This document shows positions 3,354-43,826 of a stretch of 64,000 bases of DNA, piece after piece; within the stretch, counting starts at the first letter, position 1, and every line of letters begins with the position of its first letter. Position numbers and translations under genes: made by a program. The DNA comes from Planctomycetota bacterium. Its GTDB lineage: Bacteria > Planctomycetota > MHYJ01 > WSZJ01. Below the pieces are notes generated by a model, which was given only the letters and a program-made list of their open reading frames with translations, was not told the origin of the DNA and made no database searches. Where the stretch lies: assembly GCA_038060895.1 (NCBI GenBank), contig JBBTCT010000009.1, positions 368,082 through 432,081 on the forward strand, read 5' to 3'.

Positions 3354-5057
3354 ATGCCGACTCTCGGTCCCGGCGTCTTCCAGACCTGGTTCGACACGCT
3401 GAAGCAGATCGAGGTCGGCGCGATTCTCTCCTTCGCTGCTGCCGGCGCTGCCGTGCCCGCCCGGCTGGCGCTTCGCCTGGCGCGCGCGTTCGCCTGTGCG
3501 CTGGGCGCCATCGCCGACCGGCCGGTGCTGGCGATCGGCCTGCCCGGGCTGCTGTCATTCGCCGGCGCAGCGCTCGCCGGGCTGCTGCTGCGCTACCCGG
3601 AGCCTGAAATCCACGACGAGTGGAGCTACCTGCTGCAGGCGGACACATTCGCGCAGGGGCGCCTCACGAACCCCCCGCACCCGATGTGGAAACACTTCGA
3701 GTCCTTCCACATCAACCAGCAGCCCACCTACCAGTCCAAGTATCCGCCTGCGCAGGGAATGTTCCTCGCGCTCGGCCAGCGCGCGACCGGCGACCCGATC
3801 GTCGGCGTCTGGCTCGCAACGGCGCTCGCCATGTCTGCGTTCGCGTGGATGTTCCGGGGCTGGCTGCCGCCGAAATGGGCCGCCTGGGGCTCCCTCATCG
3901 TGCTGCTGCGAGTGGGGATGACGAGTTACTGGGCACAGGCCTACTGGGGCGGCGCGGTCGCCGCCCTCGGAGGGGCGCTCGTCTACGGCGCGTATCCCCG
4001 GTTGCGAAGCGGCCCCCGGGTCCGCGACGCGCTCTGGCTCGCGGCCGGTCTCGTCATCCTGTCGAACTCGCGGCCCTTCGAGGGAGTCGTCGTTTCGCTT
4101 CCGGTCGCGATCGGTCTTGCCTGGCACTTTGTCCGCGGCCGCTCACTTCCCAAATCCGCGTGGCTCATCCGCGTCGCGGCGCCCGTGGCGCTCGTCCTTG
4201 CGGCCGACGCCGCCTGGATCATGACGTACAACAAGGCGGTGACCGGAAGCGCCACGACGATGCCGTACTTCGTCCACGCGAAGACATATGCGCGGATTTC
4301 GCAGTGGATTTTCGGGAAGCGGAACGAACCGCAGCCGTACCGCCATGAAGTCATGCGGCAGTACTACGAAGAGGAAGAGCTGCCGTACTACGAGCGGCAG
4401 CAGCATGCTTCGGTCCTGCTTGTCGAGATTCCGTGGAAGATCGTCCGGGCCGCTGACATTCCGTACTCGGGCCTGATGATTCTGCCGCTGGCCTTCGCCG
4501 TCGGCGTCTGGCGGCGTCGACGGACCCGGATCGCGATCGCGGGATTCAGCGCCGCACTTGCCGCGGGCTCCACGCTCACCGTGTTCCTGTCCCACTACGG
4601 AGCGCCCGCAACGGCGTGCGGTTTTCTCCTGGTCATGCAGGGCCTGCGCCACCTCAATGCCCTCAGGCTGCGAGGCCGGCCCTCCGGGCGCTTCGCGGCC
4701 CTCGGCGTCACGGTCATGGTCGCCGGCATGTGCGTCTACCTGCTCTGGCTTCACTCCGTCATCGGGATCTGGGGCCAGGCCCGCGCCCACGTGCAGCAGC
4801 AGTTCGAGCAACTCCCCGGCGACCACCTCGTCGTCGTGCGCTACGCACCGCCGCCGCTTCACCTCTGCCACATGGAGTGGGTCTACAACCGCGCCGACAT
4901 CGACGGCGCCCGCGTCGTATGGGCGCGGGACATGGGAGTTGAAGCGAACCGCGAGCTGATCGGGTATTTTCTTGCCCGGGGCCGGATAATCTGGCTCATG
5001 GAGGTCCGGGACGACGCAGAACTACCCGAGCCGAGGCCCTATCCCGGACTGAAGTAA
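3354..5057 (+). CDS. Polytopic membrane protein, probable GT-C-fold glycosyltransferase
   Basis: C-terminal 567 aa of ORF 1974..5057. [18 protein letters not shown] (DE motif), SKYPP and SRPFEG, many TM helices, [10 protein letters not shown] tail. Confidence 0.7.
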
Positions 5058-31800: not shown

Positions 31801-32829
31801 CTTCTCGAGCGCTTTTCCGACAATGAGCCGAAGCTCCACCGGGCCTTGCAGCGGATTCGGCTCGTCGTGCTCGATGCGCCCCAGCACCTCGAGAAGTTCC
31901 GTCCCGGCGAACGGCCGCTGGCCGTCGACCATTTCATGCAGCAAAACTCCCAGCGCCCAGACGTCCGTCCTGATGTCGATGTCGTGCACGCGCCCCGCCG
32001 CCTGCTCCGGCGCCATGTAAAAGGGCGTTCCGAGCGTCTGCCCCGTCACCGTCTTCAGCGTCGAAACACCGGCCAGCGACGCCTTCGCAAGGCCGAAGTC
32101 GAGAATCTTCGGCTCGTCCTGCGGCGTTACGAGCACATTGCCGGGCTTCAGGTCCCGGTGGATGATCCCGTTCATGTGCGCGTGGTGCGCGGCCCGGCAG
32201 ACCTTCACCATCACCCGAAGCCTCTGCTCCAGCGGAAGCCCCTTCGCCCACCTGTCCAGCGGCTTTCCCTCGACGATTTCCATCGTGTAATACCGCCGAC
32301 CGTCCTGCCGGCCGATGTCGTGCACCGCCACGATGTTGGGATGCGTGAGCTGCGCGGCCAGCTCGGCTTCGCGAATGAAGCGCCGCTCGTCGTCCTCCGA
32401 GGCGAAATCCCCGGCGAGCAATACCTTCAGCGCGACTTCGCGCTGGGCGTCGGTCTGCCGCGCGCGGAACACAACCCCCATGCCGCCGCGGGCAATCTCC
32501 TCGAGGATCTCGTATCGGCCGAAAAATCTCGCCGGTGCACTCCTGGAGGTGGCAGGCCTGTCCGGGAACGTCGCGCGTAGCGAAGAGTCCTCGACAGGCC
32601 CCTCGCGAGGCGGGGCAAGCACGGTCTTTTCCAGCGCGCCCGGCTGCGGGGAGATCCTCGTCTGCTCCAACGCGCCACCCCTCGTCGCTTCGAGCCAGCG
32701 TTCCGCGAGAAGCCCCGCGACGTCGCGGCCCGAAGCCGCCGCTTCGACCTGCAGCGCTTCCGCTCTCTCCGCGCTCACAACGCCGCGCGCAAGCGCTTCT
32801 GCGAGAACCGGGTGAAGTGCGTCCTTCAT
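28894..32829 (-). CDS. Membrane Ser/Thr protein kinase with PEGA and PQQ/FG-GAP beta-propeller repeats
   Basis: ARGGMGVV, VALK, HRDLKPGN, DFGLAK, GTPFYMAPE, a TM helix and DxDGDG repeats. ATG 32829 overlaps the upstream stop. Confidence 0.92.
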   Translation of the reverse strand: MKDALHPVLAEALARGVVSAERAEALQVEAAASGRDVAGLLAERWLEATRGGALEQTRISPQPGALEKTVLAPPREGPVEDSSLRATFPDRPATSRSAPARFFGRYEILEEIARGGMGVVFRARQTDAQREVALKVLLAGDFASEDDERRFIREAELAAQLTHPNIVAVHDIGRQDGRRYYTMEIVEGKPLDRWAKGLPLEQRLRVMVKVCRAAHHAHMNGIIHRDLKPGNVLVTPQDEPKILDFGLAKASLAGVSTLKTVTGQTLGTPFYMAPEQAAGRVHDIDIRTDVWALGVLLHEMVDGQRPFAGTELLEVLGRIEHDEPNPLQGPVELRLIVGKALEKDRSRRYATAEALAEDIERFIAGDPVSVRPPGIGRRARRWARHHPAASGAVLATLAAFVAGMAWEFSRPGTLVIDLEPSAAVVEIDGRAASGEVRIPSGRHAITARAPGFDDLATEVSLERGERRTLPIRLSRSVGYLDLDADEPGTTAEIAGEVHGLPLRHHSFPTGDCRVTFRRRGCESRTLFLKVERNAAATAWVSLPSSGYSSRRAGNVFRGPIALRDPDGDGVADVAGNFSQYLITVNGATGELLRSTWMYKEVGWAGWRSLDWDGDGVEDDATVGRYGNEVRVTLWSGKSLGDTATFRGKLSQKQLWTWKFPTDSEVPMWPRPVALGADLWISVPGGVRRARAGDSEPAPAIPVPGAPSPQLAPLGHDAFLASGGDILVCIERDGRERWRIDVPPNLRLPGDELGFKSLPADLPIPCATADDVFGINPLDGSIAWKHAGVQPAEFWLSETPAGRATTVYSFLPSGLAAWDVATGRRLFSGPIPRPGEGSIYAACAPSSWCSPAGTRMVCTSSTTGLRLWEYDAGAGIATSAAVADGPAGPEFAFSTRDHRFVVIGEDGRLRKEVLLDFTPQQVHATTLDADGRPDWVLVGYGIQIVRSTRVLWKRRSDNAVRARPVTFRRLGEPAIAQAMRSGDNQTEMLCLRGATGEVLWRYGTEFDVMHPPALADWDGDGTADVFTQTGNQFMRLVCLSGVDGHELASTPIPSTPYPTALLRDLGGDPRPEAILFNYPLTLCARRMGEDKPLWSVEIPQPVFQAPLLVDLEGDETPELVAAFASAEASDARVGAWSLDGRALWVAPTGDRTWGSPFAHDLDADGKPEIAVPCTESIVFLGKDGAIRARRPGVGGSSDPGIPLPDGGFVIGTRTGVARLHRDGTTLWTKAGNCTGGALGVVNLPGTPTAAVVGVDYAGRVFRLDLETGAERWRFDLGARCEFGLTLQDLDGDGTPEALMGCDDFSLYAIDLK

Positions 32830-35800
32830 CGCAAGTCCACCGAAGTGAGCCACCCGTCGTTCGTCCCGAAAAATGCTTCCGGCACGCCGTCGCCATCAGC
32901 GTCGGCGAGCAGGACGCCGCCTTCGGAAAAGTCGCCGGCGGAGAGGCGAAAGCGTTCGCGGCCGGTCGCGAGGTCGACGACGAACAGACGGCCTGCACGG
33001 TCGATTCCGGCGATGGCCGGGGCGCCGCCGGGGAAGCGGACCAGGCCGAGCGCGCCGACGACGGCTGCGCTGGGGTAAGTCCAGCGGAGCGTTCCGTCGA
33101 GCGCCGTGAGGGCCACGCCGGTCTTCGTGCCCACGACGAGGGACCGGTTCGCCGGGCCGGGGCCTTCGCACTCCCACGGTGCGCAGAAGGAGCCGCCCTG
33201 CCCTTCGCGCCGGGCGACTCGTTTTCCACTCGCATCGAACACGTGCAGGTCCGCGGCTCCCGCCGCCAGCACTTCCAGCTTCCCGTCGCCGTCCACGTCG
33301 ATCGCCGCGGGCGTGGTCCGCATGAACTCGCCCGTCTCAGCGGTCCACAGCGTTTTCCCATCCTGCCGGATCGCCGCGACCCAGCCGCGCTTCATGTCCA
33401 CGCTGCCATACGCGAAGAGGATTTCGTCGCGCGCGTCGCCGTCGAGATCCGCGAGAGCGCTTCCGGCCATGACGAGGCTCGCCTCGACGGACCAGTCGAG
33501 GTCTGTCGCGCCGGAGGTTGTCTTCGCGGCGCCGAGGTTCATAGGGAAGATGGCGTAAGAGGGATTGCCGCGGGAGTCTTCGCCCAGGAATGAAGCGCGT
33601 CCGTAGGAGATCTGGTCGCGGGTGGGGCAGGTAAAGAGCGGGCGGCCGTCGCGGCCGGAAAGGACGCGGAAGGCGGTTTTTCCGGTGTCGTCGTAGCAGG
33701 TGAGCGCGATGTCGGAGACGCCGTCGTGGTCGGCGTCGTGGACGAGAGGCTCAAAAATGGTGTCGAAGCCGCTTCCGGCGCGCCAGAGAAGTTCCCCCGT
33801 GCGGGCGTCGAGGCAGCGCATCTCGGAAGCGCCGTCGTTGCCGCGGCCGGCGACGGCGATGCCGAGGCGGCCGCCTGACGGGATGGCGACAGGCCGAGGC
33901 CGGACAGAGTTCCCGAAGGAGCGCCTCCAGAGGACGCGATTTCCGCGGGCGAGCGAATAGCCGAAGCCGGTGATGATGTAATCCGTCTCGCCGTAGCCGT
34001 CGGCGTCGACGGGCTGGATTCCGTGCGAAGGCGTCAGCAGGGAGAATTCCGAGACCTCCGATCCTGATCGGTCGAACACGCGCAGCCGCAGGTCGTTTGT
34101 GGCGATCGCAACGCGGGCGCCGCCGCGGCTGTCGTGGCACACGGGTGCTGCGAGAAGCGGAGCGCCGAGCGGCAACCGCCACGACTCGCGGCCGGTGTCA
34201 AATTCGTGGCAGCGCAGGGTTGCTTCGTCGACGGTGAAGAGGCACCCTGGACCCGCGGCGGATGTGTCGCCAGCCTCTTTCGACCAGGGGAGCGGTATTT
34301 CCAGTGGCTTGCCGCCCCGGAATGCGTCCCAGCCGCGCAGCGACTCCTGTCCCCAGGCGGCCATGAGCCTTGGCGAGCGCGGGCCTGCGGGAACTTCGAA
34401 GCACGCGATGGCCGGACCGGTGTCCGCGCTCCACAACTCGCGGCCGTCCACGAGGGAGCGGGCCGACAGGAGGCGGTCTCCGGCGAGGCACAGCGGATCC
34501 GTGAAGCGATGCGCTCCGGCGGCGCGAATCGGCTTGACGGCCTGGACGCCGGGGGCGACGTCAATTCTCCACGCGATCTCGCCCGCGGAGTTCAGCCGCA
34601 GGATTTCACGGTCGCGAAATGCAAGCACGTCGCCCTCTACGGTGACCGCCAGGGCCGTCGGCGCCGGGAATTCCAGGCTCTTCAAGGTTTCTCCGTCCCT
34701 CCAGGCCAGCAGCTCCAATCCGCCTGGAATCCCGACCCACACTCCTTCCCGGCACGCCACCATGGGCGGAACGGGCGCGCTCAGCACGTTGACCGCGACA
34801 TCCTTCCTCCAGATCTCGTGCTGGGGAACGCCCTTCGGTCCCGTCGCGGGGTCCGCCTTTGCAAGGCTTCCCGCGCAGACCTGGATTCGGCCTCGCGGCA
34901 TCGCGATTCCCTGGGGAATAAATGTGGAGGCCAGCACGTCGTCCTCGACGCCGTCGCCGTCGGCATCCCACCAGGCCAGGTTCCACGCAGAAGTCCCGTC
35001 CGTCACGCGGGTCACAAAAATCGCTTCTCCGTTTCTGCCGTCAAAGGACAGCAGGACGTTGTACTGGCGGCCGCTGACGTCGGGCACGCCGTCGGCATTC
35101 ACGTCGCGCAGATGGCATTCGGTGGCCCCGGCGTCCGGGAACTTCACGCCCCATGACCCGCTCGAGGGCACGGACCTCCAGAAGCGGGTGGTTTCATCGC
35201 GGCGGACGTCGATGTCGATGAAGCGCGACCACTCGCAGGAGCGGCGGATCACGGCGCGATGCCGGCCGACGGGGAAGGGGTGGTTGGTGAGGGGGGTGCC
35301 GTGGTTTTCGCCGAGGATGGTGACGAACGTTCCCGGCTCTCCCGTTTCGAGCGTCAGTCGACCTGTCGAGACGTCGAGGCGAAACACGTGCGTCCTCCGC
35401 TCTCCGCGCCCGACGACGACCTCCCGCCGCTCGGGCTCGTGGCCCCCGGCGCCTGCGACGAGGACGTGCGCCCCCGGGCGAACGCGGACCGGGCCGCCCC
35501 GTGGAACCCGCGCCCCGTCCACTTCGACCCACGCTCCCGGCGCATCGACCTCGAAAGCGACTTCGCCGTCGCGCGACCACCACCAGCCGCCCACTACGGC
35601 GAGGGTCGTGACGACGGCGACCAGGCCCGCCAACGCCGCCGGATGCCGGCGCGCCCAGCGTTTCGCGGTCACCGACAGTCCCGGCGCGCGCGCCGAGACG
35701 GGCTCCCCGGCAATGAAGTGGTCGAGATCCTCGGCCAGCGCTTCCGCCGTCGCATAGCGTAGATGTTTTTCTTTCGCCATCGCTTTCCCGATGACCGTCG

Positions 35801-36692
35801 CGAGATCGGGCGGGGCGTCGAGGGCGCGCGCTTCTTCCTGCAGGATCTTCCTCGCGACCTCGATCATCGTTTCCGCGCGGAAGGGGACGTCACCCGAGAC
35901 GAGCTGGTACAGGACGACGCCGAGCGCGTAGACGTCGGTGCGGATATCGATGTCCTTGACCCGCCCGTCCGCCTGTTCCGGCGCCATGTAGAAGGGCGTG
36001 CCGATCGTCGCGCCGGAAGCAGTGCTCATCGTGGGCGACGCGGCCGTCACGCCTTTCGCAAGCCCGAAGTCGAGCAGTTTTGGCTCTCCGTCCGCGGCGA
36101 CCAGGATGTTCCCGGGTTTCAGGTCGCGGTGAATCACGCCGCGCATGTGGGCGTGGTGCACGGCGCGGCAGGCTTTCGCAGCGGCGCGAAGCCGTTCGGA
36201 AAGAGGCCGCGACTTCGCCCACCGGTCGAGGGGCTCTCCTTCGACGTACTCCATCGTGAAGAAGAGCCTTCCTCCTTCGCGGCCGAAGTCGTGTACCGCG
36301 ACGATGTTCGGGTGCGACAGCCGCGCGGAGAGTTCCGCTTCGTGCGCAAATCGCCGCTCATCGTCTTCCGACGCCAGGCCGCCGTGCAGCAGGACTTTCA
36401 GCGCGACGGTGCGGTTGACGTCCGTCTGGCGTGCCCGGAAGACGATCCCCATGCCTCCGCGCGCGATCTCAGCCAGGATCTCGTAGCGGCCGAAGCGGCG
36501 GGGAGGCTCGGCACCCCGCGAGGAATAGACGCGCGTGGGGCCGGGGTCCGAGGGAGGCTGCCGGGATTCGCGCACGGACGACTCCGGGACCGACGGGGGA
36601 ACCGGCGACGGCACGTCCGCCACCGGTTTCGACGGTGGCGTCGTGCGCGTCGCTGAAAAGTCGCCAGGTTCCTGGCTGCCAGCCTGCGTCAA
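32826..36692 (-). CDS. Membrane Ser/Thr protein kinase with PEGA and PQQ/FG-GAP repeats (tandem paralogue)
   Basis: Same kinase motifs and architecture as the adjacent gene; TTG start with GAGGAG RBS. Confidence 0.92.
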   Translation of the reverse strand: MTQAGSQEPGDFSATRTTPPSKPVADVPSPVPPSVPESSVRESRQPPSDPGPTRVYSSRGAEPPRRFGRYEILAEIARGGMGIVFRARQTDVNRTVALKVLLHGGLASEDDERRFAHEAELSARLSHPNIVAVHDFGREGGRLFFTMEYVEGEPLDRWAKSRPLSERLRAAAKACRAVHHAHMRGVIHRDLKPGNILVAADGEPKLLDFGLAKGVTAASPTMSTASGATIGTPFYMAPEQADGRVKDIDIRTDVYALGVVLYQLVSGDVPFRAETMIEVARKILQEEARALDAPPDLATVIGKAMAKEKHLRYATAEALAEDLDHFIAGEPVSARAPGLSVTAKRWARRHPAALAGLVAVVTTLAVVGGWWWSRDGEVAFEVDAPGAWVEVDGARVPRGGPVRVRPGAHVLVAGAGGHEPERREVVVGRGERRTHVFRLDVSTGRLTLETGEPGTFVTILGENHGTPLTNHPFPVGRHRAVIRRSCEWSRFIDIDVRRDETTRFWRSVPSSGSWGVKFPDAGATECHLRDVNADGVPDVSGRQYNVLLSFDGRNGEAIFVTRVTDGTSAWNLAWWDADGDGVEDDVLASTFIPQGIAMPRGRIQVCAGSLAKADPATGPKGVPQHEIWRKDVAVNVLSAPVPPMVACREGVWVGIPGGLELLAWRDGETLKSLEFPAPTALAVTVEGDVLAFRDREILRLNSAGEIAWRIDVAPGVQAVKPIRAAGAHRFTDPLCLAGDRLLSARSLVDGRELWSADTGPAIACFEVPAGPRSPRLMAAWGQESLRGWDAFRGGKPLEIPLPWSKEAGDTSAAGPGCLFTVDEATLRCHEFDTGRESWRLPLGAPLLAAPVCHDSRGGARVAIATNDLRLRVFDRSGSEVSEFSLLTPSHGIQPVDADGYGETDYIITGFGYSLARGNRVLWRRSFGNSVRPRPVAIPSGGRLGIAVAGRGNDGASEMRCLDARTGELLWRAGSGFDTIFEPLVHDADHDGVSDIALTCYDDTGKTAFRVLSGRDGRPLFTCPTRDQISYGRASFLGEDSRGNPSYAIFPMNLGAAKTTSGATDLDWSVEASLVMAGSALADLDGDARDEILFAYGSVDMKRGWVAAIRQDGKTLWTAETGEFMRTTPAAIDVDGDGKLEVLAAGAADLHVFDASGKRVARREGQGGSFCAPWECEGPGPANRSLVVGTKTGVALTALDGTLRWTYPSAAVVGALGLVRFPGGAPAIAGIDRAGRLFVVDLATGRERFRLSAGDFSEGGVLLADADGDGVPEAFFGTNDGWLTSVDLR

Positions 36693-37728: not shown

Positions 37729-39051
37729 CTACGCCTTTACGATCTTCTCCCGATGCCGCGTGATCGCCTTCGTCGCGTTGCGCGTATCCACGACCAGCGC
37801 CGCGTTCTCCACGACCATCGCGTAATCGACATCCGAATGGTCCGTCACGATCACCACGGCGTCTTGTTCCTTCACCGACTTCGCCGTCAGCGCGATCGAT
37901 GTCTGCTTCACGTCGTGCTTCCGTCCCTTGCGGATCTTCGGGATGTGCGGGTCGTGGTACGACACCTTCGCTCCGCGTTCCTCCAGCAGCTCAAACAGCT
38001 TCAGCGCTGGCGACTCCCGCACGTCGTCGCTGTTCTTCTTGTAGGCGACGCCCAGCAGGAGGACTTTCCCGTTATGAAGCGTCTTCCCGCGCCGGTCCAG
38101 CGCTTCGGCCAGCCGCGTGACGACATAGTAGGGCATCTGGGTGTTGATCTCGCCCGCGAGTTCGATGAACCGTGTCGTGACGTCAAACTGCCGCGCTTTC
38201 CACGAGAGGTAGAAAGGGTCGATCGGGATGCAGTGCCCCCCGAGGCCGGGGCCCGGAGTGAAAGGCTGGAAGCCGAAGGGCTTGGTCGAAGCGGCCTCTA
38301 TGACTTCCCAGACATCGATGCCCATGCGGTCGAAGACGACTTTAAGCTCGTTGACGAGCGCGATGTTGACGCATCGGTAGATGTTCTCGAGCAACTTGGT
38401 GGCTTCCGCTGCCGCGGCACTCGACACCGGGACCACCTTCGTGACGGCCTTTCCGTACAGCGCGGCGGCGACGCGCCCGGACGCCGCGTCGAGTCCGCCG
38501 ACCACTTTCGGGATCCGCTCCGTGGACCAGTTCGGATTCCCGGGGTCCTCGCGCTCGGGGCTGAAGGCGAGGAGAAAATCCTTCCCGCACTTCAGTCCGC
38601 TCTTCTCGAGAATCGGCTTGCAGACCTCCTCCGTCGTCCCCGGGTAAGTGGTGCTCTCCAGCACCACCAGCTGCCCTTTGCGAAGCCTCTTCGAAATCGC
38701 CTCGCTCGTCTTCTCGATGTACGTCATGTCCGGGTCGCGCGTCTCCGTCAACGGCGTCGGGACGCAGATGAGGATCGCGTCGGGCTCGTTGAGACGGTCG
38801 AAGTCGTCGGTCGCCTCGAATCCTTTGTCGCGCATCGCGCGGATGGTCTCGCCGCTGATGCTCTTGATGTAGCTGCGCTTCTCCGCGAGCGCCCTGATCT
38901 TCTCCGGGTCGATGTCGAATCCCAGCACCCGCAGGCCCGCCTGCGTGAAAACGCGCGCCAGGGGGAGCCCGACGTAACCCAGACCGACGATTCCAACCTG
39001 GGCCTTGCGGGTCTCGATCTTTCCCAGAAGATCCTTCTCGATGTCGCTCAT
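37729..39051 (-). CDS. Nucleotide-sugar dehydrogenase (UDP-N-acetylhexosamine 6-dehydrogenase, WbpA/TviB-like)
   Basis: GLGYVGLPLA, CVPTP, ESTTYPGTT, SPEREDPGN, KLLEN, GGHCIPIDP, DVRESP. Confidence 0.93.
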   Translation of the reverse strand: MSDIEKDLLGKIETRKAQVGIVGLGYVGLPLARVFTQAGLRVLGFDIDPEKIRALAEKRSYIKSISGETIRAMRDKGFEATDDFDRLNEPDAILICVPTPLTETRDPDMTYIEKTSEAISKRLRKGQLVVLESTTYPGTTEEVCKPILEKSGLKCGKDFLLAFSPEREDPGNPNWSTERIPKVVGGLDAASGRVAAALYGKAVTKVVPVSSAAAAEATKLLENIYRCVNIALVNELKVVFDRMGIDVWEVIEAASTKPFGFQPFTPGPGLGGHCIPIDPFYLSWKARQFDVTTRFIELAGEINTQMPYYVVTRLAEALDRRGKTLHNGKVLLLGVAYKKNSDDVRESPALKLFELLEERGAKVSYHDPHIPKIRKGRKHDVKQTSIALTAKSVKEQDAVVIVTDHSDVDYAMVVENAALVVDTRNATKAITRHREKIVKA

Positions 39052-39470
39052 TTAGCGAAAGTCTCCACGATCTTGTAGACCCACGCGCCGAAGAGGCCGG
39101 CCCAGAAGCCGATGGTCGCGTGTTTTCCGTAGCGATTGAAGCGGCGCTCGACGGTGCCGCCAGTGAAAAGAAAGACGAGGGAGGCGAGTCCGGCGGCCAC
39201 GGTGGCGGTGAAGAGGGCGACGCCCATGGGTTGGGCCTTGACTGCCTGCCAGGGGTGCCCGTGCGCCATGTGGGCCCACGAGGTCGTCATGCCGCAGGAG
39301 AAACAGGGGATGTGGGTCCATTTGAGGAACATGCAAGGAGGGAGGCCGAGGCGTTCGTGGGTGCCCATGCCGGTGGGGGAGGGGGTGACGAGGGCGGAGA
39401 CGATGACGAGCCCCGCCGCGATTGCTACGAGCACCGAGTTTACGAGGCGATCCTGGTGGGTCGGCGACAT
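39048..39470 (-). CDS. DUF2752 family membrane protein
   Basis: GTHERLGLPPC...PCFSCGMTTSW; its stop overlaps the next ATG. Confidence 0.85.
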   Translation of the reverse strand: MSPTHQDRLVNSVLVAIAAGLVIVSALVTPSPTGMGTHERLGLPPCMFLKWTHIPCFSCGMTTSWAHMAHGHPWQAVKAQPMGVALFTATVAAGLASLVFLFTGGTVERRFNRYGKHATIGFWAGLFGAWVYKIVETFAK

Positions 39471-39483
39471 CCGGGAGGATTTT

Positions 39484-39512
39484 GCCACAGAGGACACAGA
39501 GAGCACAGAGGA
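39484..39512. repeat. Left 29-bp inverted repeat (three CACAGAG-core 9-mers) flanking the GxxExxY gene
   Basis: GCCACAGAGGACACAGAGAGCACAGAGGA; 28/29 identical to the reverse complement of 39891-39919. Confidence 0.9.
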
Positions 39513-39515
39513 AGG

Positions 39516-39881
39516 CTACAGCGCGACTCGCTGGACCCCTTTCACGAGAGTCGGAAGGCCGAAGTTCAGGATGAGGGCCCGCTTCATTCCCGTACACCGC
39601 AGGTAGGAGATTGCCTGCGCCAGGAATAGATCGTCATTGGGACGCTGGGACTTCACTTCAACGATGACAGCGCCATACCCAATCAGGTCTATCCTCTGGC
39701 CCTTGATCATCCGTCCCTTGTATATGACGTCGACTTTGCGCTGCCGCTCGAACGGAACACCTTGAATCTCGAATTCGACGCAGAGCGCTTCTTCATAAAT
39801 GGACTCAAGCAGCCCAGGTCCGAGCACTCGATGAACCTCAATGGCCGCTGCCAGAATCTTCTCCGTCATCGCATCTCCCAT
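39516..39881 (-). CDS. GxxExxY protein (PD-(D/E)XK nuclease-like)
   Basis: VHRVLGPGLLESIYEEAL, RIDLI, VIVEVKS, QAISYL, LILNFG. Confidence 0.93.
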   Translation of the reverse strand: MGDAMTEKILAAAIEVHRVLGPGLLESIYEEALCVEFEIQGVPFERQRKVDVIYKGRMIKGQRIDLIGYGAVIVEVKSQRPNDDLFLAQAISYLRCTGMKRALILNFGLPTLVKGVQRVAL

Positions 39882-39882
39882 A

Positions 39883-41253
39883 CTATGCCCTCCTCTGTGA
39901 TCTCTGTGTCCTCTGTGGCTCCAGTCTTTCAAGCGCATCCTCCACCGACGCCACCGGGTCCACCTGAATGCCATTCCCGTGCTTGATCCCCGGCGCGGGC
40001 ACCAGAATTCTTCTGAACCCCAGCCGCTCCGCCTCTTCCACCCTTGCCTCCACCGGCCCGCATGGCCGGATCTCGCCACCCAGCCCGACTTCGCCCACGA
40101 CCGCCGTATCGTGCGGGAACGGCCGATCGAGAAAGGCCGACGCCACCGCCAGCGCAACCGCCAGGTCGCACGACGGATCTTCCAGCTTCGCGCCTCCCGC
40201 GGTCGCGACGAACACGTCCTCCCCGCTGAGCTGGATCCCGGCGCGCTTCTCCAGCACCGCCAGCAGGACCGCCAGTCGCGTCGCGTCGACCCCATTCGCC
40301 CTTCGCGCCGGCGTTCCGTAGCCGGACTTCGTGGTGAGTGCCTGCACGTCGACGAGAAGCGTCCTCGTTCCCACCAGCGCCGGCGTCACGACCACTCCCG
40401 GCAGGACGTGCGCCGTGCGGCTCAGGAAGTAGCGCGAGGGATTCGCGACATCCTGCAGGCCGCTTCCCGACATCTCGAAAATCCCTACTTCACCGGTGGA
40501 GCCGAAGCGGTTCTTGACGCCGCGGAGGAGGCGGTAGTCCTGGAGGCGGTCACCCTCGAGGTAGAGCACCGCATCGACGAGGTGCTCGAGCGTCCGCGGG
40601 CCGGCGACCGAGCCTTCCTTTGTCACGTGGCCGATCAGGACGAGCGCGTGCCCGGCGGACTTTGCGGCGCCGGTGAGCCTCGCGGCGCATTCACGGACCT
40701 GCGTGAGGGAGCCGGGGACGGAAGGCAGGTCCGGGTGTGCGACCGTCTGGATGGAATCGATGACGACCAGGTCGGGATTTCGCGCCGCGATCTCCGCGGC
40801 GAATTCCACCAGGTTCGTGCCGCTCCCCACGAGCAGCCCCGGCGCGTTGGCGCCGACGCGGCGGCCGCGCATGGCGACCTGGGAAGCGGATTCTTCGCCA
40901 GAGAGATAGAGGACGGTGCGTCCGGCGCGCGCGGCGCGATCGGCGGCCTGCAGCATCAGGGTCGATTTGCCGACGCCCGGGTCGCCCCCGACCAGGACGG
41001 CGGAACCGCGAACGAAACCGCCCCCGAGAACGCGGTCCATCTCGCGGGAACCGGACGAAAAGCGCTCCTCGGCGCTTTCCGGGACGTCGGCCAGGGGCCG
41101 GGCCCGGTCGCGGCCGACCGCCCACCCGGTCGCGTCGTCAGGGGCGGAGAGGTCGGGCTCGAAGCAGTTCCATTCGCCACAGGACGGACAGCGGCCGAGC
41201 CTTTTGGGGGAAGCGTGGCCGCAGTGGAGGCAATTGAAGGTGGACCGGGGCAC
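39883..41253 (-). CDS. radA: DNA repair protein RadA/Sms
   Basis: C4 zinc finger, GDPGVGKSTL, IDSIQT, GHVTKEG, KNRFG, Lon-like C-terminal domain GEVGLGGEIR. Confidence 0.96.
   Translation of the reverse strand: MPRSTFNCLHCGHASPKRLGRCPSCGEWNCFEPDLSAPDDATGWAVGRDRARPLADVPESAEERFSSGSREMDRVLGGGFVRGSAVLVGGDPGVGKSTLMLQAADRAARAGRTVLYLSGEESASQVAMRGRRVGANAPGLLVGSGTNLVEFAAEIAARNPDLVVIDSIQTVAHPDLPSVPGSLTQVRECAARLTGAAKSAGHALVLIGHVTKEGSVAGPRTLEHLVDAVLYLEGDRLQDYRLLRGVKNRFGSTGEVGIFEMSGSGLQDVANPSRYFLSRTAHVLPGVVVTPALVGTRTLLVDVQALTTKSGYGTPARRANGVDATRLAVLLAVLEKRAGIQLSGEDVFVATAGGAKLEDPSCDLAVALAVASAFLDRPFPHDTAVVGEVGLGGEIRPCGPVEARVEEAERLGFRRILVPAPGIKHGNGIQVDPVASVEDALERLEPQRTQRSQRRA
39891..39919. repeat. Right 29-bp inverted repeat flanking the GxxExxY gene
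   Basis: TCCTCTGTGATCTCTGTGTCCTCTGTGGC; lies within the last codons of radA. Confidence 0.9.
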
Positions 41254-41309
41254 GGGCGAGCTCCTGAAGTGGGTGTGCAGTCTCCGTAGCCATCATCACA
41301 TCAACAGCG

Positions 41310-41338
41310 ATTATTGAGTATAGATGGATGGTTGTCAA
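41310..41338 (-). promoter_or_regulatory. Putative sigma70 promoter for the radA operon
   Basis: Minus strand TTGACA-N17-AATAAT in an AT-rich divergent intergenic region. Confidence 0.5.
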
Positions 41339-41376
41339 GTGCATTTCCGGATTGCGCTTCCGAATATGGATCTCCC

Positions 41377-42084
41377 ATGACCGAAACCCGCACCGGCGGC
41401 GATCACTCCGATTTCGGCGCGACCCTCTGGAGCGTCGTCCTCCGCGCCCGGGATCCCGGCGCGCCGGACCGCCGCGCCGCCCTGGACCAGCTCGTCCGCG
41501 CCTACTGGAAGCCCGTCTACTTCTTCGTCCGTCGCCGCGGCCATGACGTCGAATCGGCGAAAGACTACACCCAGGGCTTTTTCGCGGCCTTCCTCGAAAA
41601 GGACTTCCTTGCCGCCGTGGACCGCTCCCGCGGCCGCTTCAAGTCATTCGTCCTCGCGGCCCTGCAGCACTTTCTGTCGAAGGAGTACGACCGGGAACGA
41701 ACGCTGAAGCGAGGAGGGGGAGTAAAGACCTTCGCGCTGGAATTCGACGGGGGCGAAATCGAACCCGGGCATTCCGAGACGCCCGAAAAGGCGTTCGCCC
41801 GCAGCTGGGCGACCATCCTTGTCGGACGCGTCATGGAGCGCTATCGGGCCGAATGCCGGGAACGCGGCGCAGAAAAGGCTGCGGAAGCGTTGAAGCTGCA
41901 TCTCGAGGGCAAGGCCTACGCCGAGGTGTCCGCCGCATTGCGCGTCTCGGTCAAGGACGTCACCAACTGGCTCCACCGCGGGCGGCAGCGCCTGAAAGAG
42001 CTGACCGAAGACGAGGTGCGGCCGACGGTTGCATCGGAAGATGATCTGCGGCAGGAAATGCGCGATATTCTCGAAATGCTGTGA
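41377..42084 (+). CDS. ECF sigma factor (kinase-associated type)
   Basis: FGATLWSVV, YWKPVYFFVRRRG, RGRFKSF, region 4 YAEVSAAL..VTNWLHRGRQRL; immediately upstream of a Ser/Thr kinase. Confidence 0.9.
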   Translation: MTETRTGGDHSDFGATLWSVVLRARDPGAPDRRAALDQLVRAYWKPVYFFVRRRGHDVESAKDYTQGFFAAFLEKDFLAAVDRSRGRFKSFVLAALQHFLSKEYDRERTLKRGGGVKTFALEFDGGEIEPGHSETPEKAFARSWATILVGRVMERYRAECRERGAEKAAEALKLHLEGKAYAEVSAALRVSVKDVTNWLHRGRQRLKELTEDEVRPTVASEDDLRQEMRDILEML

Positions 42085-42116: not shown

Positions 42117-43826
42117 ATGAGCGACACCACCTGCCCCAAGTGCCAGACGACGTTCGCTTCCCGCCCCGGCGACGGAGGCGAGGAAGTCTGTCCGCGCTGC
42201 CTCATGAAGTTCGTCCTCGGCTCAGCCGGGTCGACCGCCACGGTCCTGTCCTCGGACCCCCGCGTGGGAACCTTGTTCCGTGGAATGGAAGTGCTCGCCG
42301 TGCTTGGCCGCGGCGGAATGGGCGTGGTGTACCGCGCCCGCCAGAAAGACCTCGGGCGTGAGGTCGCCCTCAAGCTCGTCTCCGACGCGCTGGCCGGCGA
42401 CGCGGAATTCGTCGAGCGCTTCCGTCGCGAGGCGAAAGTCCTGTCCTCGCTCTCGCACCCGAACATCGTCGCCGTTCACGAATTTGGATTCGAAGGGGGC
42501 GTCCCTTTCCTGGTCATGGAACTGGTGGAGGGCAGCAACCTTCGGAAGTTGCTCGGCCCGAAGAAGCTCGCGGCGGAAAGCGCGCTTCGCATCATCCCGC
42601 AAGTCTGCGAGGCGCTGGAGTACGCGCATCGTGCGGGGGTGGTGCATCGGGATATCAAGCCGGAGAACATCCTGGTCACTCCGGACGGCCGGGTGAAGAT
42701 TGCGGACTTCGGGCTTGCGCGACTGTCCGAGAGCGGAGTTTCCCTGACGCGCACTGACGCGACGATGGGGACGCCGCAGTACATGGCGCCGGAGCAGGTC
42801 GAGAATTCGAAGGGCGTGGATCATCGTGCGGACATCTACTCGATGGGCGTCGTGTTCTACGAGATGCTGACCGGTGAACTGCCACTGGGCCGCTTCGAGC
42901 CCCCTTCCTGTCGCGCTTCCGTAAACGCGGCCTTCGACCCGATCGTCCTGAAGGCGCTCGAGCGTCGTCCCGAGCAGCGCTACCAGCAGGCGAGCGAAGT
43001 CCGCGCGGACGTGGCCCGAGTGCCGGCCGGAGGGGCCGGGCGGGTGAAGCCGTCGCCGGCGAGGCTGGCAATCGTGTGGTGCGCCTTGATGGTACTGATC
43101 CTCATCATGGCGCTGGCAAAGAGCGCGGATTACCTCTTCTGGGGCCCGTGGCTCTGGGTGCTCCTCGCTCTTTCCCTCGGCGGGGCATGGTTCGAAAACC
43201 GCTCCCGGGCCCGCAACCCGGGTGGCCTGAGTCCCAAGGCGACCTGGGCCGGCATCGGCGTCCTGCTCGCCGTCGGCATCCTCTCCATCAGCATCGCCGT
43301 GACGATGACAACGCCGGACCGCATGATCGCGATTCTCCTGGGTTCCGGAAGCGCGCTCCTGGGCCTCTCGCACGTCGTCTCCCGTCTGGGCTCGGATTCC
43401 CGGAGAATGATGGCTTCGCTCGCAATTTCATCGCCCTTCGCCGTCACGGTTCTCCTGGCGGCGGGCTGGGTCATCGCGGACGAAATCCGCTACGCCGACA
43501 AGCCCAGGGCCTTCAAGGGACTTGACGCCGGGCTCGACAGAACCGAAGTCCTGCGTCGCATCGGCGAGCCCCATGGAATCTGGCACACCGGCCCGGTGGC
43601 CGAAGTGCCGGTCGGCGGCGACCCGCTTGTCAGGACGCTGGCGCAGAATGAAGTCTGGTCTTATGGCCGCCAGCGCCTCTTCAAATGGCAGGCGAGTCCG
43701 GCGTTTTTCGTCCTCGCGAATGACCGCAGCGGGACCGGCCCCGCCCCCTGGGAATTCCAGGTCGAGTTCGGACTGAATGGCCGCGTGCTGAAGCTGCACA
43801 CGCCGGAGATCTCCCATTCCCGCTGA
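42117..43826 (+). CDS. Membrane Ser/Thr protein kinase with N-terminal Zn-ribbon, several TM helices and a BamE/SmpA-like C-terminal domain
   Basis: CPKC..CPRC, GRGGMGVV, HRDIKPEN, DFGLAR, GTPQYMAPE. Confidence 0.92.
   Translation: MSDTTCPKCQTTFASRPGDGGEEVCPRCLMKFVLGSAGSTATVLSSDPRVGTLFRGMEVLAVLGRGGMGVVYRARQKDLGREVALKLVSDALAGDAEFVERFRREAKVLSSLSHPNIVAVHEFGFEGGVPFLVMELVEGSNLRKLLGPKKLAAESALRIIPQVCEALEYAHRAGVVHRDIKPENILVTPDGRVKIADFGLARLSESGVSLTRTDATMGTPQYMAPEQVENSKGVDHRADIYSMGVVFYEMLTGELPLGRFEPPSCRASVNAAFDPIVLKALERRPEQRYQQASEVRADVARVPAGGAGRVKPSPARLAIVWCALMVLILIMALAKSADYLFWGPWLWVLLALSLGGAWFENRSRARNPGGLSPKATWAGIGVLLAVGILSISIAVTMTTPDRMIAILLGSGSALLGLSHVVSRLGSDSRRMMASLAISSPFAVTVLLAAGWVIADEIRYADKPRAFKGLDAGLDRTEVLRRIGEPHGIWHTGPVAEVPVGGDPLVRTLAQNEVWSYGRQRLFKWQASPAFFVLANDRSGTGPAPWEFQVEFGLNGRVLKLHTPEISHSR

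Follow-up and report, generated by a model that had tools for sequence, protein, structure and literature searches.

Introduction

REP sequences and their RAYT partners, as characterized in the sections of PMC3337134 that deal with them, combine a small single-copy gene flanked by its own short inverted repeats with further copies of these repeats, which are scattered over intergenic gaps as hairpin-forming inverted doublets (REPINs). Several distinct protein-repeat pairs may coexist per genome, and RAYTs persist vertically over long periods. Another element of related layout is the intervening sequence (IVS) of the Coxiella 23S rRNA. According to the pertinent part of PMC4990558, its 28-bp terminal stem is cut by RNase III, which removes the Shine-Dalgarno (SD) sequence, and three tandem heptamers precede a small ORF. 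In Geobacter metallireducens, Aklujkar et al. 2009 (PMC2700814) described a set of "class 2 putative global regulator binding sites". The relevant passages and supplements give these as three tandem repeats with consensus TCTCCGTS[Y], which form 21 inverted pairs of varying separation between genes (supplement S8) and whose neighbouring genes are given in supplement S5; the authors read them as sites for an IHF/HU-type regulator.

With 13,904 cluster representatives at E ≤0.001, the GxxExxY/PDDEXK_3 proteins make up a very large family. The superfamily survey of Steczkiewicz 2012 lists their function as unknown, and the paper on GxxExxY that was examined names them only as an RT neighbour. Judged by title and abstract, none of the papers retrieved on both subjects links REP sequences with restriction-endonuclease-like proteins. 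Here we describe a GxxExxY gene enclosed by inverted repeat arrays, and its relatives in other bacteria.

Results

The nuclease gene is enclosed by inverted arrays of a 7-nt word

The window, i.e. the whole 64-kb stretch of DNA that was analysed, carries a unit of 436 bp composed of two arms and the nuclease gene between them. In gene orientation, the upstream (5′) arm (positions 39887 to 39919, minus strand) contains a GC leader followed by three CACAGAG cores at 9-nt spacing. The downstream (3′) arm (39484 to 39516, minus strand) is an inverted copy of this array, again with three CACAGAG words at 9-nt spacing, and adjoins the stop codon of the nuclease gene. An inverted-repeat search of the window returned arms of 33 nt that are 94% complementary (31/33) and 370 nt apart. 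This agrees with the earlier note on this DNA, which described a gene bracketed by inverted repeats built from 9-mers with a CACAGAG core; the arm identity of 28/29 given there holds for the first 29 nt, the full arms being 33 nt long with 31 matches. The claim that the upstream arm supplies the SD was also correct: a GGAGG sequence (39889-39893) is present at the inner end of this arm, 7 nt before the nuclease ATG at 39881.

When up to two mismatches were allowed, CACAGAGNNCACAGAG matched four times in the 64-kb window and all four matches were located at the cassette locus, compared with 0.33 matches expected by chance; none of 100 shuffled sequences reached four. A general scan of the window detected no other arrays of period 8-10 like those of the cassette, and the search for solo copies of the repeat that had been proposed earlier gave none in the other 63.5 kb. 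Neither a transposase nor a target duplication had been noticed before, and this stands: the sequence outside the arms shows no direct duplication of a target site, and no transposase family matches the ORF (see below). An insertion sequence or MITE was rejected for these reasons, even though inverted ends are present. Rfam gave nothing above noise for the element, and region 39300-40100 contains no rRNA match; the element is flanked by radA and a DUF2752 gene and is not inserted in a 23S rRNA helix.

The cassette encodes a predicted PD-(D/E)XK nuclease

The enclosed gene (39516 to 39881, minus strand; ATG at 39881, stop codon at 39516-39518) encodes a protein of 121 aa. A second in-frame ATG, at 39869, is used as the start by some gene calls. 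The only Pfam and NCBIfam matches of the ORF are PF13366 PDDEXK_3 (2.3e-32; 112.2 bits, cut-off 22), covering residues 4-119 of 121, and TIGR04256 GxxExxY (8.6e-33; 113.2 bits, cut-off 35); transposase families, including HUH/Y1 (IS200-like), were not matched in either collection. The GC content of the gene is 0.525-0.575 versus 0.62-0.73 in the flanks, in line with its earlier description as a gene of lower GC. An alignment of 36 homologues shows no variation at the catalytic residues E15, D65 and K77, and a conservation of at least 90% at E75. The GxxExxY signature is similar in this respect, with G21, P22, G23, L25 and E26 invariant and L24 and Y29 at least 90% conserved. The E..D..ExK motif is intact in the window protein.

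The predicted structure (pLDDT 92.5) contains the elements H-H-E-E-E-H-E, corresponding to an alpha-alpha-beta-beta-beta-alpha-beta core. The best PDB fold matches all belong to the PD-(D/E)XK nucleases (LHK-Exo, Cas4, lambda exonuclease and Hjc), these matches being weak (best E 7e-3, TM 0.51) and equally compatible with a DNA and an RNA substrate. A PDB sequence search with the window protein gave no match at E ≤1, and no family of the PADLOC and PHROGs models was matched. Taking motif and modelled fold together, the window protein appears to be a minimal PD-(D/E)XK nuclease. A predicted complex of two protein copies scored 0.01, which gives no verdict either way. Tandem two-domain forms account for about 20 of the 150 best representatives, a hint that the working unit may be a dimer.

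The cassette is embedded in a radA operon

Both neighbouring genes are on the same strand as the nuclease gene, confirming the operon between radA and DUF2752 that had been proposed. Gene radA (39883 to 41253, minus strand) ends with a TAG (39883-39885), which is separated by 1 nt from the start codon of the nuclease gene. The DUF2752 gene (39048 to about 39470, minus strand) lies 3′ of the cassette; its likely ATG is at 39470, 14 nt beyond the outer end of the downstream arm, and a longer DUF2752 ORF starts from a GTG (39506) within that arm. The sole sigma-70-like promoter match in region 38900-41500 is located upstream of radA (41310 to 41338, minus strand). No promoter match belongs to the cassette itself, and no terminator-like site was found between the radA, nuclease and DUF2752 genes.

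The radA frame runs through the entire upstream arm, so that this arm, over its whole length, also forms the last 11 codons of radA and encodes the tail PQRTQRSQRRA. This read-through had not been remarked upon in the earlier note. An arm-encoded tail (LEPQR..) is present in 5/5 RadA relatives (80-92% identity), and because all of these carry it, the element at radA is old and has been retained vertically. The idea of a self-propagating cassette consequently gains no support as far as recent spread at this locus is concerned. Expression of the nuclease gene is probably coupled to that of radA, since radA translation would cross the upstream array and end 1 nt before the nuclease start, and the cassette lacks a promoter match of its own. 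The predicted RNA stem between the arms would have to compete with ribosomes translating radA. Their passage through the upstream arm argues against simple sequestration of the ribosome binding site by the arms, as suggested earlier. A gene radA upstream of a GxxExxY gene was encountered in just one other of 87 loci (L083); radA was therefore not retained as a preferred target, and the single recurrence may be due to chance.

Inverted arrays flank GxxExxY genes in many phyla

The flanks of 81 testable GxxExxY genes, namely those of 80 loci from more than 10 phyla and that of the window, were compared with 264 shifted controls. Flanking inverted arrays were found for 67/81 genes versus 5/264 of the shifted pseudo-genes, and 63 of the 67 could be assigned to a named periodic unit type. 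The expectation that periodic inverted repeats would flank other GxxExxY genes is thereby borne out, and the contrary possibility, that other members of the family lack such flanks, is contradicted. The 14 genes that failed the test include two-gene composites (L003, L012 and L023), and others that show nothing.

In most arrays a 7-nt word is repeated three times, with a spacing of 8-9 nt. In the family loci the arrays adjoin start and stop codons, the start being within a few nt of an array. At the 3′ side, 14/82 genes end in TCTCTGTGA, and hence their last codons constitute the first unit of the downstream array. Repeat-coded read-through peptides occur in 11/20 homologues with terminal extensions. 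In cultured strains, insertions were found in the housekeeping operons fabD-fabG, radA-FAD protein and ade-manC. The gene is co-oriented with both neighbours in 50/76 cases and opposed to both in 2/76, a bias that, on these raw counts, is modest. Three loci (L031, L032 and L055) have a hairpin-gene-hairpin layout. The five other ORFs scanned within arrays comprise one DUF5677, several without a Pfam match and a 67-aa zinc-ribbon-like ORF; a further ten scanned ORFs comprise a Dam-like ORF after a single array and otherwise ordinary neighbouring genes. None of these 5 + 10 ORFs is a four-helix-bundle ORF.

Array type follows the nuclease tree

When array period was mapped on the protein tree it required 3 changes, whereas 200 shuffles gave a mean of 11.0 and a minimum of 7. 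Unit type required 17 changes versus 24.4 after shuffling (0/200 as low), and host phylum 37, the least possible number being 16. Moreover, paralogues present in one locus with different arrays each belong to a different clade (L060 and L071). According to these sequence comparisons, it is the tree of the nuclease, and not the host phylum, with which array type and period agree. The clustering could partly reflect shared ancestry of gene and flanks, without protein-DNA specificity. Among 28 protein pairs with at least 75% identity, 23 are located in unrelated flanks, some of them across phyla, and the remaining five are syntenic. GxxExxY cassettes have, on this evidence, spread both vertically and horizontally.

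The word is conserved, and not the pairing of the arms

Folding of the RNA of 39470-39935 (minus strand) predicts that the arms pair, in the MFE as well as in the centroid structure, and enclose the SD; the fold has a z of -3.67 and 0/100 shuffles were as stable. The pairing of the arms in mRNA that the earlier note had envisaged is thus supported as a prediction. Selection for such pairing was considered and rejected on the following observations. The inner (second) spacers match in 21/70 cases, which is about the random rate, whereas 153/162 match at the free core position 2. Among three syntenic Gallionellaceae loci, 20/21 upstream core positions are invariant and 4/4 upstream spacer positions vary. 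Transitions compatible with G.U pairs in the sense RNA number 58 versus 68 incompatible ones, i.e. there is no G.U bias, and mirror units match no better (123/162) than non-mirror units (204/290). This pattern indicates that it is the 7-mer word that is conserved, and not base pairing between the arms.

These data bear on the possibility that the cassette is an RNA-level, IVS-like element. In that case the arms would pair, RNase III would cut the stem, and the ORF RNA would be excised, separating the radA and DUF2752 messages; the arrays would serve processing and occlusion of the ribosome binding site, and the nuclease would be cargo or act on RNA. The stable predicted fold around the SD fits this, as do the lack of a promoter match in the cassette, the co-orientation of many genes with both neighbours, the arrays adjoining start and stop codons, and the Coxiella precedent in the part of PMC4990558 that describes it. 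However, inner spacers that match at about the random rate, the absence of a G.U bias and mirror units that match no better all speak against it, as does radA translation across the upstream arm, and it leaves the invariant catalytic residues and the match between array type and clade unexplained. We therefore consider an IVS-like element rather unlikely.

Gene-less array pairs occur in intergenic regions

Sixteen inverted array pairs without a gene were found in 10/80 loci, where they form paired, hairpin-forming intergenic repeats. Locus L042 contains five such pairs in 11.7 kb, with conserved arms and unrelated interiors. The solo and gene-bearing copies of L070 have identical arms, spacers included; the solo copy was rejected as a deletion derivative of the gene-bearing one, as only the arms align and the interiors do not. 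In plasmid and chromid records, arrays are present at 86 places in 28 records, nearly all outside annotated genes. By tblastn, a Pseudoalteromonas megaplasmid and a B. ovatus plasmid carry arrays and no GxxExxY gene, a result that applies to those replicons only; we assume that the nuclease acts on such arrays in trans. Rfam detected only one tRNA in ten array-rich loci. Among cultured bacteria, arrays of this kind are frequent between the genes of Bacteroides, Geobacter, Pseudoalteromonas, Gemmatirosa and cyanobacteria, and the Geobacter consensus TCTCCGTS[Y] is the reverse complement of the CACGGAG unit found among the arrays.

Gene-less copies might mean that the arrays belong to the host, as REP-like mRNA-stabilising hairpins or as sites for IHF/HU-type nucleoid proteins, and that the GxxExxY gene is a parasite of the homing type, which would cut empty hairpins and insert a copy of itself into the loop, the arms being target halves. 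Conserved arms around unrelated interiors, the identical arms in L070, the replicons without a detected GxxExxY gene and the hairpin-gene-hairpin loci are all in keeping with this, and a host regulator site is how the Geobacter authors interpreted their repeats in the sections concerned (PMC2700814). Against it, the ORF is fitted to the arrays, with its start within a few nt and, in 14/82 genes, its last codons made of an array unit. In addition, array type and period track nuclease clade across phyla, which is not expected of a host-owned site, and the same 7-mer is kept in more than 10 phyla, whose nucleoid proteins differ greatly. Host ownership of the arrays is for these reasons unlikely.

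If instead the arrays were operators, the main role of the protein would be to bind DNA or RNA sequence-specifically and thereby regulate its own cassette, and there would be no present mobility. Tandem words on both sides of the gene that overlap SD, start and stop would suit such a role, and so would the stability of the element at one locus in the window's lineage; the invariant nuclease residues, the many gene-less copies elsewhere and the near-identical proteins in unrelated loci and phyla make it very improbable. That an ordinary small gene happens to lie within a terminator-like inverted repeat, in favour of which there is nothing but the missing transposase gene and target duplication, is refuted by the shuffles (0/100 reach the count) and by the flanks of 67/81 genes versus 5/264 controls.

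Discussion

The 436-bp unit belongs to a class of compact cassettes that is very large and extends over many phyla, and in which the gene for a nuclease of about 120 aa is located between inverted arrays. We consider that it may well represent a partnership of the REP/RAYT kind, with a PD-(D/E)XK nuclease in place of the HUH tyrosine transposase. The analogy with REP/RAYT drawn in the earlier note is strengthened by the flanks of 67/81 genes, by the gene-less copies elsewhere and by the co-inheritance of nuclease and array type. In such a partnership the arrays would be the putative cognate recognition sites of the GxxExxY nuclease; we take them as such because the word and not the pairing is conserved, and because gene-less inverted pairs also occur. 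Several protomers would occupy the tandem words of the two arms, and the enzyme would cut its own repeats at or beside the words, the DNA being a duplex, a hairpin or a cruciform. With another copy that carries arrays as template, host repair could then maintain and spread the arrays and, occasionally, the gene. The 14/81 genes that failed the flank test, the arrays on gene-less replicons, the window without solo copies, the stable locus, the lack of a target duplication, the weak fold matches and the possible shared ancestry of gene and flanks count against such a partnership. So does the copying step, which would have to rest on host repair, since a lone PD-(D/E)XK nuclease is not known to transpose DNA.

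More generally, and with greater reserve, we put forward as a tentative proposal that GxxExxY nucleases drive a hitherto unrecognised class of REPIN-like systems, present throughout bacteria and occasionally in archaea, which arose independently of HUH transposases. Each clade would read its own 7-nt word in tandem arrays on two inverted arms and cut, after which host repair would copy the arrays, and sometimes the gene, across phyla. Further small ORFs enclosed by short inverted repeats may have followed a parallel course, among them the S23p ORF of rRNA intervening sequences and small GIY-YIG genes. If true, this proposal would account for the Geobacter "regulator sites" and would add a second, mechanistically different long-lived genomic replicator of the REP/RAYT kind. 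The link between nuclease and arrays gives both a large protein family and a set of intergenic repeats a testable function. It also has practical consequences: cassettes within housekeeping operons lengthen neighbouring ORFs, as in the radA tail, produce spurious N- and C-terminal extensions in gene calls and probably break metagenome assemblies.

The cassette resembles free-standing homing endonuclease genes and MITE-like elements in that a small, selfish-looking nuclease gene is inserted among housekeeping genes, has inverted repeats at its ends and is accompanied by short gene-less derivatives. It differs from them, however, by having no intron or intein, no target-site duplication and no known transposase; in L070, the only pair for which the comparison was made, the gene-less interior is no deletion derivative of its gene-bearing counterpart. 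The Geobacter class 2 sites are, in the passages describing them (PMC2700814), very like the gene-less array pairs: three tandem units, in inverted pairs, in intergenic positions. They were described for one genome and read as regulator sites, and the passages and supplements examined draw no link to GxxExxY.

The analogy with intervening sequences drawn previously is borne out as to layout. The 23S rRNA IVS of Coxiella and Leptospira, with its S23p ORF, shares with the cassette a length of about 430 nt, a terminal inverted-repeat stem around a small ORF, tandem heptamers just before the start and carriage inside a host transcript, as far as the portion of PMC4990558 devoted to it describes. 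By contrast, the IVS is inserted in rRNA helix 45 and the cassette in a protein-coding operon, and S23p is a four-helix bundle unrelated to GxxExxY. Moreover, excision by RNase III has been shown for the IVS, whereas the cassette is known from its sequence, and its arms bear no sign of selection for pairing.

With REP/RAYT systems, as the relevant sections of PMC3337134 present them, the GxxExxY cassettes share inverted flanks, intergenic inverted doublets, coexisting protein-repeat pairs and vertical persistence. The proteins differ, RAYTs having an HUH/Y1 IS200-like fold and GxxExxY proteins a PD-(D/E)XK fold, and so do the repeats: a REP is a single imperfect palindrome, whereas a GxxExxY array has three 7-mers at 8-9-nt spacing with free spacers. 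The window itself also departs from the REP pattern in having no solo copies in its 64 kb, gene-less copies being found around its relatives (10/80 loci). Finally, the GxxExxY cassettes are set apart from REP/RAYT systems by their clear transfer across phyla.

A GxxExxY nuclease gene between inverted arrays in the radA region

The GxxExxY ORF of the window (39516-39881, minus strand) encodes a 121-aa protein that matches PF13366 PDDEXK_3 (2.3e-32) and TIGR04256 GxxExxY (8.6e-33), both over the full length. Reading of positions 39300-40100 and a repeat finder placed one 33-nt arm on the DUF2752 side (39484-39516) and another on the radA side (39887-39919). The two arms, separated by 370 nt, are complementary at 31/33 positions, and each comprises a GC leader and then three CACAGAG cores, one every 9 nt. 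A two-unit pattern matched four times in the 64 kb, always at the cassette, against 0.33 expected, and four or more matches occurred in 0/100 shuffles; a general scan of the 64 kb (periods 8-10) detected no further array of the CACAGAG kind. These results confirm the inverted-repeat cassette that the earlier note had described. GC content is 0.525-0.575 within the ORF versus 0.62-0.73 outside.

Gene radA (39883-41253) is located upstream of the cassette on the same strand, and downstream come genes for a DUF2752 protein and a UDP-glucose-dehydrogenase-type protein. The sole promoter-like match in the radA-cassette region precedes radA, and no terminator-like site was detected between the radA, nuclease and DUF2752 genes. 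The upstream arm contains a GGAGG sequence 7 nt 5' of the nuclease ATG. It is also read through entirely by the radA frame, a feature overlooked in the earlier note: the resulting tail is PQRTQRSQRRA, and the TAG codon (39883-39885) lies 1 nt from the nuclease ATG. Beyond radA, the plus strand encodes a sigma-70 region-4 protein (41314-42084) and then a Ser/Thr protein kinase (42117-43826), and on the other side a 1288-aa kinase with beta-propeller/FG-GAP repeats is encoded (32826-36692, minus strand). Such neighbours are unremarkable and fit a planctomycete-like genome.

The GxxExxY protein

A word-indexed protein search yielded 3228 relatives out of 3266 candidates, and an exhaustive search of cluster representatives gave 13,904 at E <=0.001 and 3003 at <=1e-10. 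Among 36 aligned relatives (58-83% identity) residues E15, D65 and K77 never vary and E75 is kept in at least 90%; together the four form the E..D..ExK set of PD-(D/E)XK nucleases. AlphaFold predicts the structure with confidence (pLDDT 92.5), and the closest solved folds to the model, LHK-Exo, Cas4, lambda exonuclease, Hjc and MGME1, are all PD-(D/E)XK nucleases, the matches being weak (best E 7e-3, TM <=0.51). The nuclease had no sequence match in the PDB and none among PADLOC or PHROGs models. Tandem forms with two domains make up about 20 of the 150 best representatives (P0241-P0249, for instance, have 240-295 aa). In five such sequences the catalytic motif of the second domain is degenerate, having lost D..ExK, so that the tandem forms look like fused pseudo-dimers of an active and an inactive copy. 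Their existence points, tentatively, to a working unit of at least two protomers. In a table of a PD-(D/E)XK superfamily survey (PMC3424549), PDDEXK_3 is entered under 'Unknown', and 'multiple transfers' are noted.

Inverted arrays flank most GxxExxY genes

A genome-contig scan matched 604 stretches, 598 of them relatives, and the best 80 loci, holding 82 GxxExxY genes, were kept. Besides a single archaeon, Methanoperedens, the hosts include Planctomycetota, Acidobacteriota, Chloroflexota, Nitrospirota, Pseudomonadota, Bacteroidota and Verrucomicrobiota. For each gene we determined the best ungapped inverted match between the 150 nt upstream and the 150 nt downstream; a gene passed when its score was at least 14 and exceeded the maximum of 30 shuffles. 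With two genes left out for short flanks and that of the window added, 81 were testable. In agreement with the periodic inverted flanks anticipated in the earlier note, 67/81 genes passed, versus 5/264 pseudo-genes placed 1800 or 3000 nt away. A periodic unit could be named in 63 of the 67: CACNGAG (42 genes), CGCCAAG and CGCAGAG (7 each), CGCAAAG and CGCGAAG (2 each), and CACGACG, CACCAAG and CAGGAAA (1 each). The arrays adjoin the ORF tightly, often ending 0-6 nt from the start, and in 14/82 genes the last codons and stop are TCTCTGTGA, the first unit of the downstream array. Repeat-coded peptides (PQRTQR.., TEDTE.., HRDHR.., LC..LCGK; in any one frame) were present in 11/20 homologues with terminal extensions.

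Among cultured bacteria, arrays flank both sides of the gene in Bacteroides finegoldii (between radA and a FAD protein gene) and Bernardetia (between ade and manC); Sphingomonas parapaucimobilis (between fabD and fabG) has units upstream only, and Treponema saccharophilum just a plain 12-nt inverted repeat. As in the window, the B. finegoldii cassette (NZ_OY725952.1) lies directly 3' of radA, which is upstream in none of the other fetched loci (87 in all); this coincidence may reflect chance or a shared target. Several loci are elaborated. Directly 3' of the GxxExxY gene of L075, seven head-to-tail ~39-nt units (987-1265), each with a reverse array (CTCTGTG/CTCCGTG), are one arm amplified in tandem. 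Composite cassettes (L003:1209-2495, L012:5964-7053, L023:5026-6387) hold an extra ORF within the array frame, encoding a 184-aa DUF5677 protein or, without Pfam match, 210 and 275 aa; L003 and L012 have an additional forward array between the two ORFs. In L002, a few kb from the GxxExxY cassette, a 127-aa ORF (3504-3887, minus strand) of a second small nuclease family, GIY-YIG (PF01541, 3.4e-11), is framed (3480-3930) by a different ~23-nt inverted repeat of the GTCATTCCG.. / ..CGGAATGAC type.

Arrays without the gene

A strict three-unit scan detected 16 forward-reverse array pairs less than 300 nt apart and without a gene, in 10/80 loci. Five such pairs occupy consecutive gaps between same-strand genes within 11.7 kb of a Geobacteraceae locus (L042), with conserved arms and unrelated interiors. 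In L070, one solo pair and the gene-bearing pair have identical arms, spacers included, and interiors that do not align. As single-stranded DNA, gene-less pairs are predicted to form strong hairpins (z -5 to -10).

The 33-nt arm of the window, searched by blastn in plasmids and chromids, matched 86 places in 28 records, nearly all outside annotated genes: in Bacteroides (14 records, including a tight array hairpin between fcl and gmd of B. ovatus), Gemmatirosa (23 and 14 places), Nostocales, and Pseudoalteromonas shioyasakiensis (7 places, 100% identity over 30 nt), where array pairs are repeated. On replicon CP076682.1 of the latter (L085), the element recurs ~450 nt apart (2000-2028 and 2452-2480 of the fetched locus), its forward array equals the window's arm over 30 nt, both spacers included, despite the phylum distance, and no GxxExxY gene was detected on that replicon. 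Since just 8 plasmid records contain a GxxExxY gene, arrays occur on replicons lacking it, at the plasmid/chromid level. Solo copies, which the earlier note had suggested looking for, are thus present in these loci and records, and none in the 64-kb window. On a Calothrix sp. PCC 7716 plasmid a single forward array (2001-2029 of L087), without a reverse partner in the 4-kb stretch, lies directly 5' of a 393-aa Dam-type methyltransferase-domain ORF beside a DnaB helicase gene.

Gene-less paired arrays were already described in Geobacter metallireducens in 2009, in passages of PMC2700814, whose authors guessed that IHF/HU-type proteins bind them; its text passages, legends and supplements S5 and S8 make no mention of GxxExxY with these arrays. 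Our literature searches found no paper connecting arrays with GxxExxY genes, and Rfam no family matching the arrays.

Cores, not pairing, are conserved in the arms

Across 67 arm pairs, 1828/2103 aligned columns match between arms. By position, the matches locate this conservation in the cores: free core positions 2 and 4 match in 153/162 and 123/162 cases, the outermost spacer in 53/86, and the second spacer, about randomly, in 21/70. In three syntenic Gallionellaceae loci, 20/21 core positions of the upstream arm are invariant and 4/4 spacer positions vary, the downstream arm being more uniform; likewise, RadA tails of the window's relatives keep core-coded Q-R residues and change spacer-coded ones. 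With conserved cores and free spacers, the arms look like candidate tandem recognition words in inverted orientation, and their complementarity like an incidental result of this arrangement, not a stem under selection.

The cassette might instead be an RNA-level element similar to a 23S rRNA intervening sequence (IVS), the arms forming a stem from which the ORF RNA is excised. Coxiella offers a striking precedent, with a terminal stem, tandem heptamers 5' of a small ORF and excision by RNase III (passages of PMC4990558), and in the window the arms are predicted to pair, closing the ORF and its SD, in MFE and centroid structures alike (z -3.67). The conservation pattern nevertheless argues that selection does not maintain pairing: besides the second spacer, core position 4 agrees in 123/162 mirror units, no better than in non-mirror units (204/290), and transitions that preserve G.U pairing in the sense RNA are not in excess over those that break it (58 versus 68). 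We consider this reading improbable. On the folding model the arms will physically pair even as a by-product, and the IVS analogy may capture how operons tolerate such cassettes.

Inheritance and mobility

In a quick maximum-likelihood tree built from 83 proteins, whose alignment is short and most of whose forks are unresolved, unit type changes 17 times (shuffled mean 24.4; 0/200 as low). Array period, classifiable in 38 (period 9 in 25, period 8 in 13), changes 3 times (shuffled mean 11.0, minimum 7), and host phylum 37 times, the least possible being 16. Clustering of array type can also be produced by shared ancestry of gene and flanks, without specificity. Paralogues of one locus (L060, L071) carry different arrays and fall in different clades. 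Among the 28 pairs of proteins with at least 75% identity, 23 are flanked by unrelated sequence, including Planctomycetota versus Nitrospirota (79%) and Planctomycetota versus Acidobacteriota (75%), and 5 by homologous sequence (same locus, different species), indicating that the family persists vertically and moves horizontally.

An arm-coded LEPQR.. tail ends 5/5 RadA relatives at 80-92% identity and is absent from the next complete one (69%). To judge from these sequences, the element persists at the radA locus, which speaks against recent self-propagation there. Two of those relatives may still have the nuclease gene, as GxxExxY homologues of 71% and 62% identity suggest. The interpretation in the earlier note gains partial support: the analogy with REP/RAYT is strengthened, and neither a recent self-propagation at the radA locus nor selection for RNA pairing is upheld.

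Comparison with REP/RAYT systems

Of the readings considered, the data best support a REP/RAYT-like partnership centred on another kind of enzyme. The nuclease would bind and cut its arrays, and a copying route would follow. No lone PD-(D/E)XK nuclease is known to transpose DNA, so we assume that host repair copies the elements. Slightly less probable even than the IVS-like alternative is a homing model, which takes the arrays for hairpins of the host and the GxxExxY gene for a parasite of them.

The REP/RAYT-like partnership shares with its namesake, as portrayed in passages of PMC3337134, one small nuclease gene nested within its own inverted repeats, gene-less inverted doublets scattered between genes, several distinct protein-repeat pairs that can coexist in a genome, and long vertical persistence. 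It differs in that the GxxExxY enzyme has a PD-(D/E)XK fold, its repeat consists of several words in an array, and transfer across phyla is evident.
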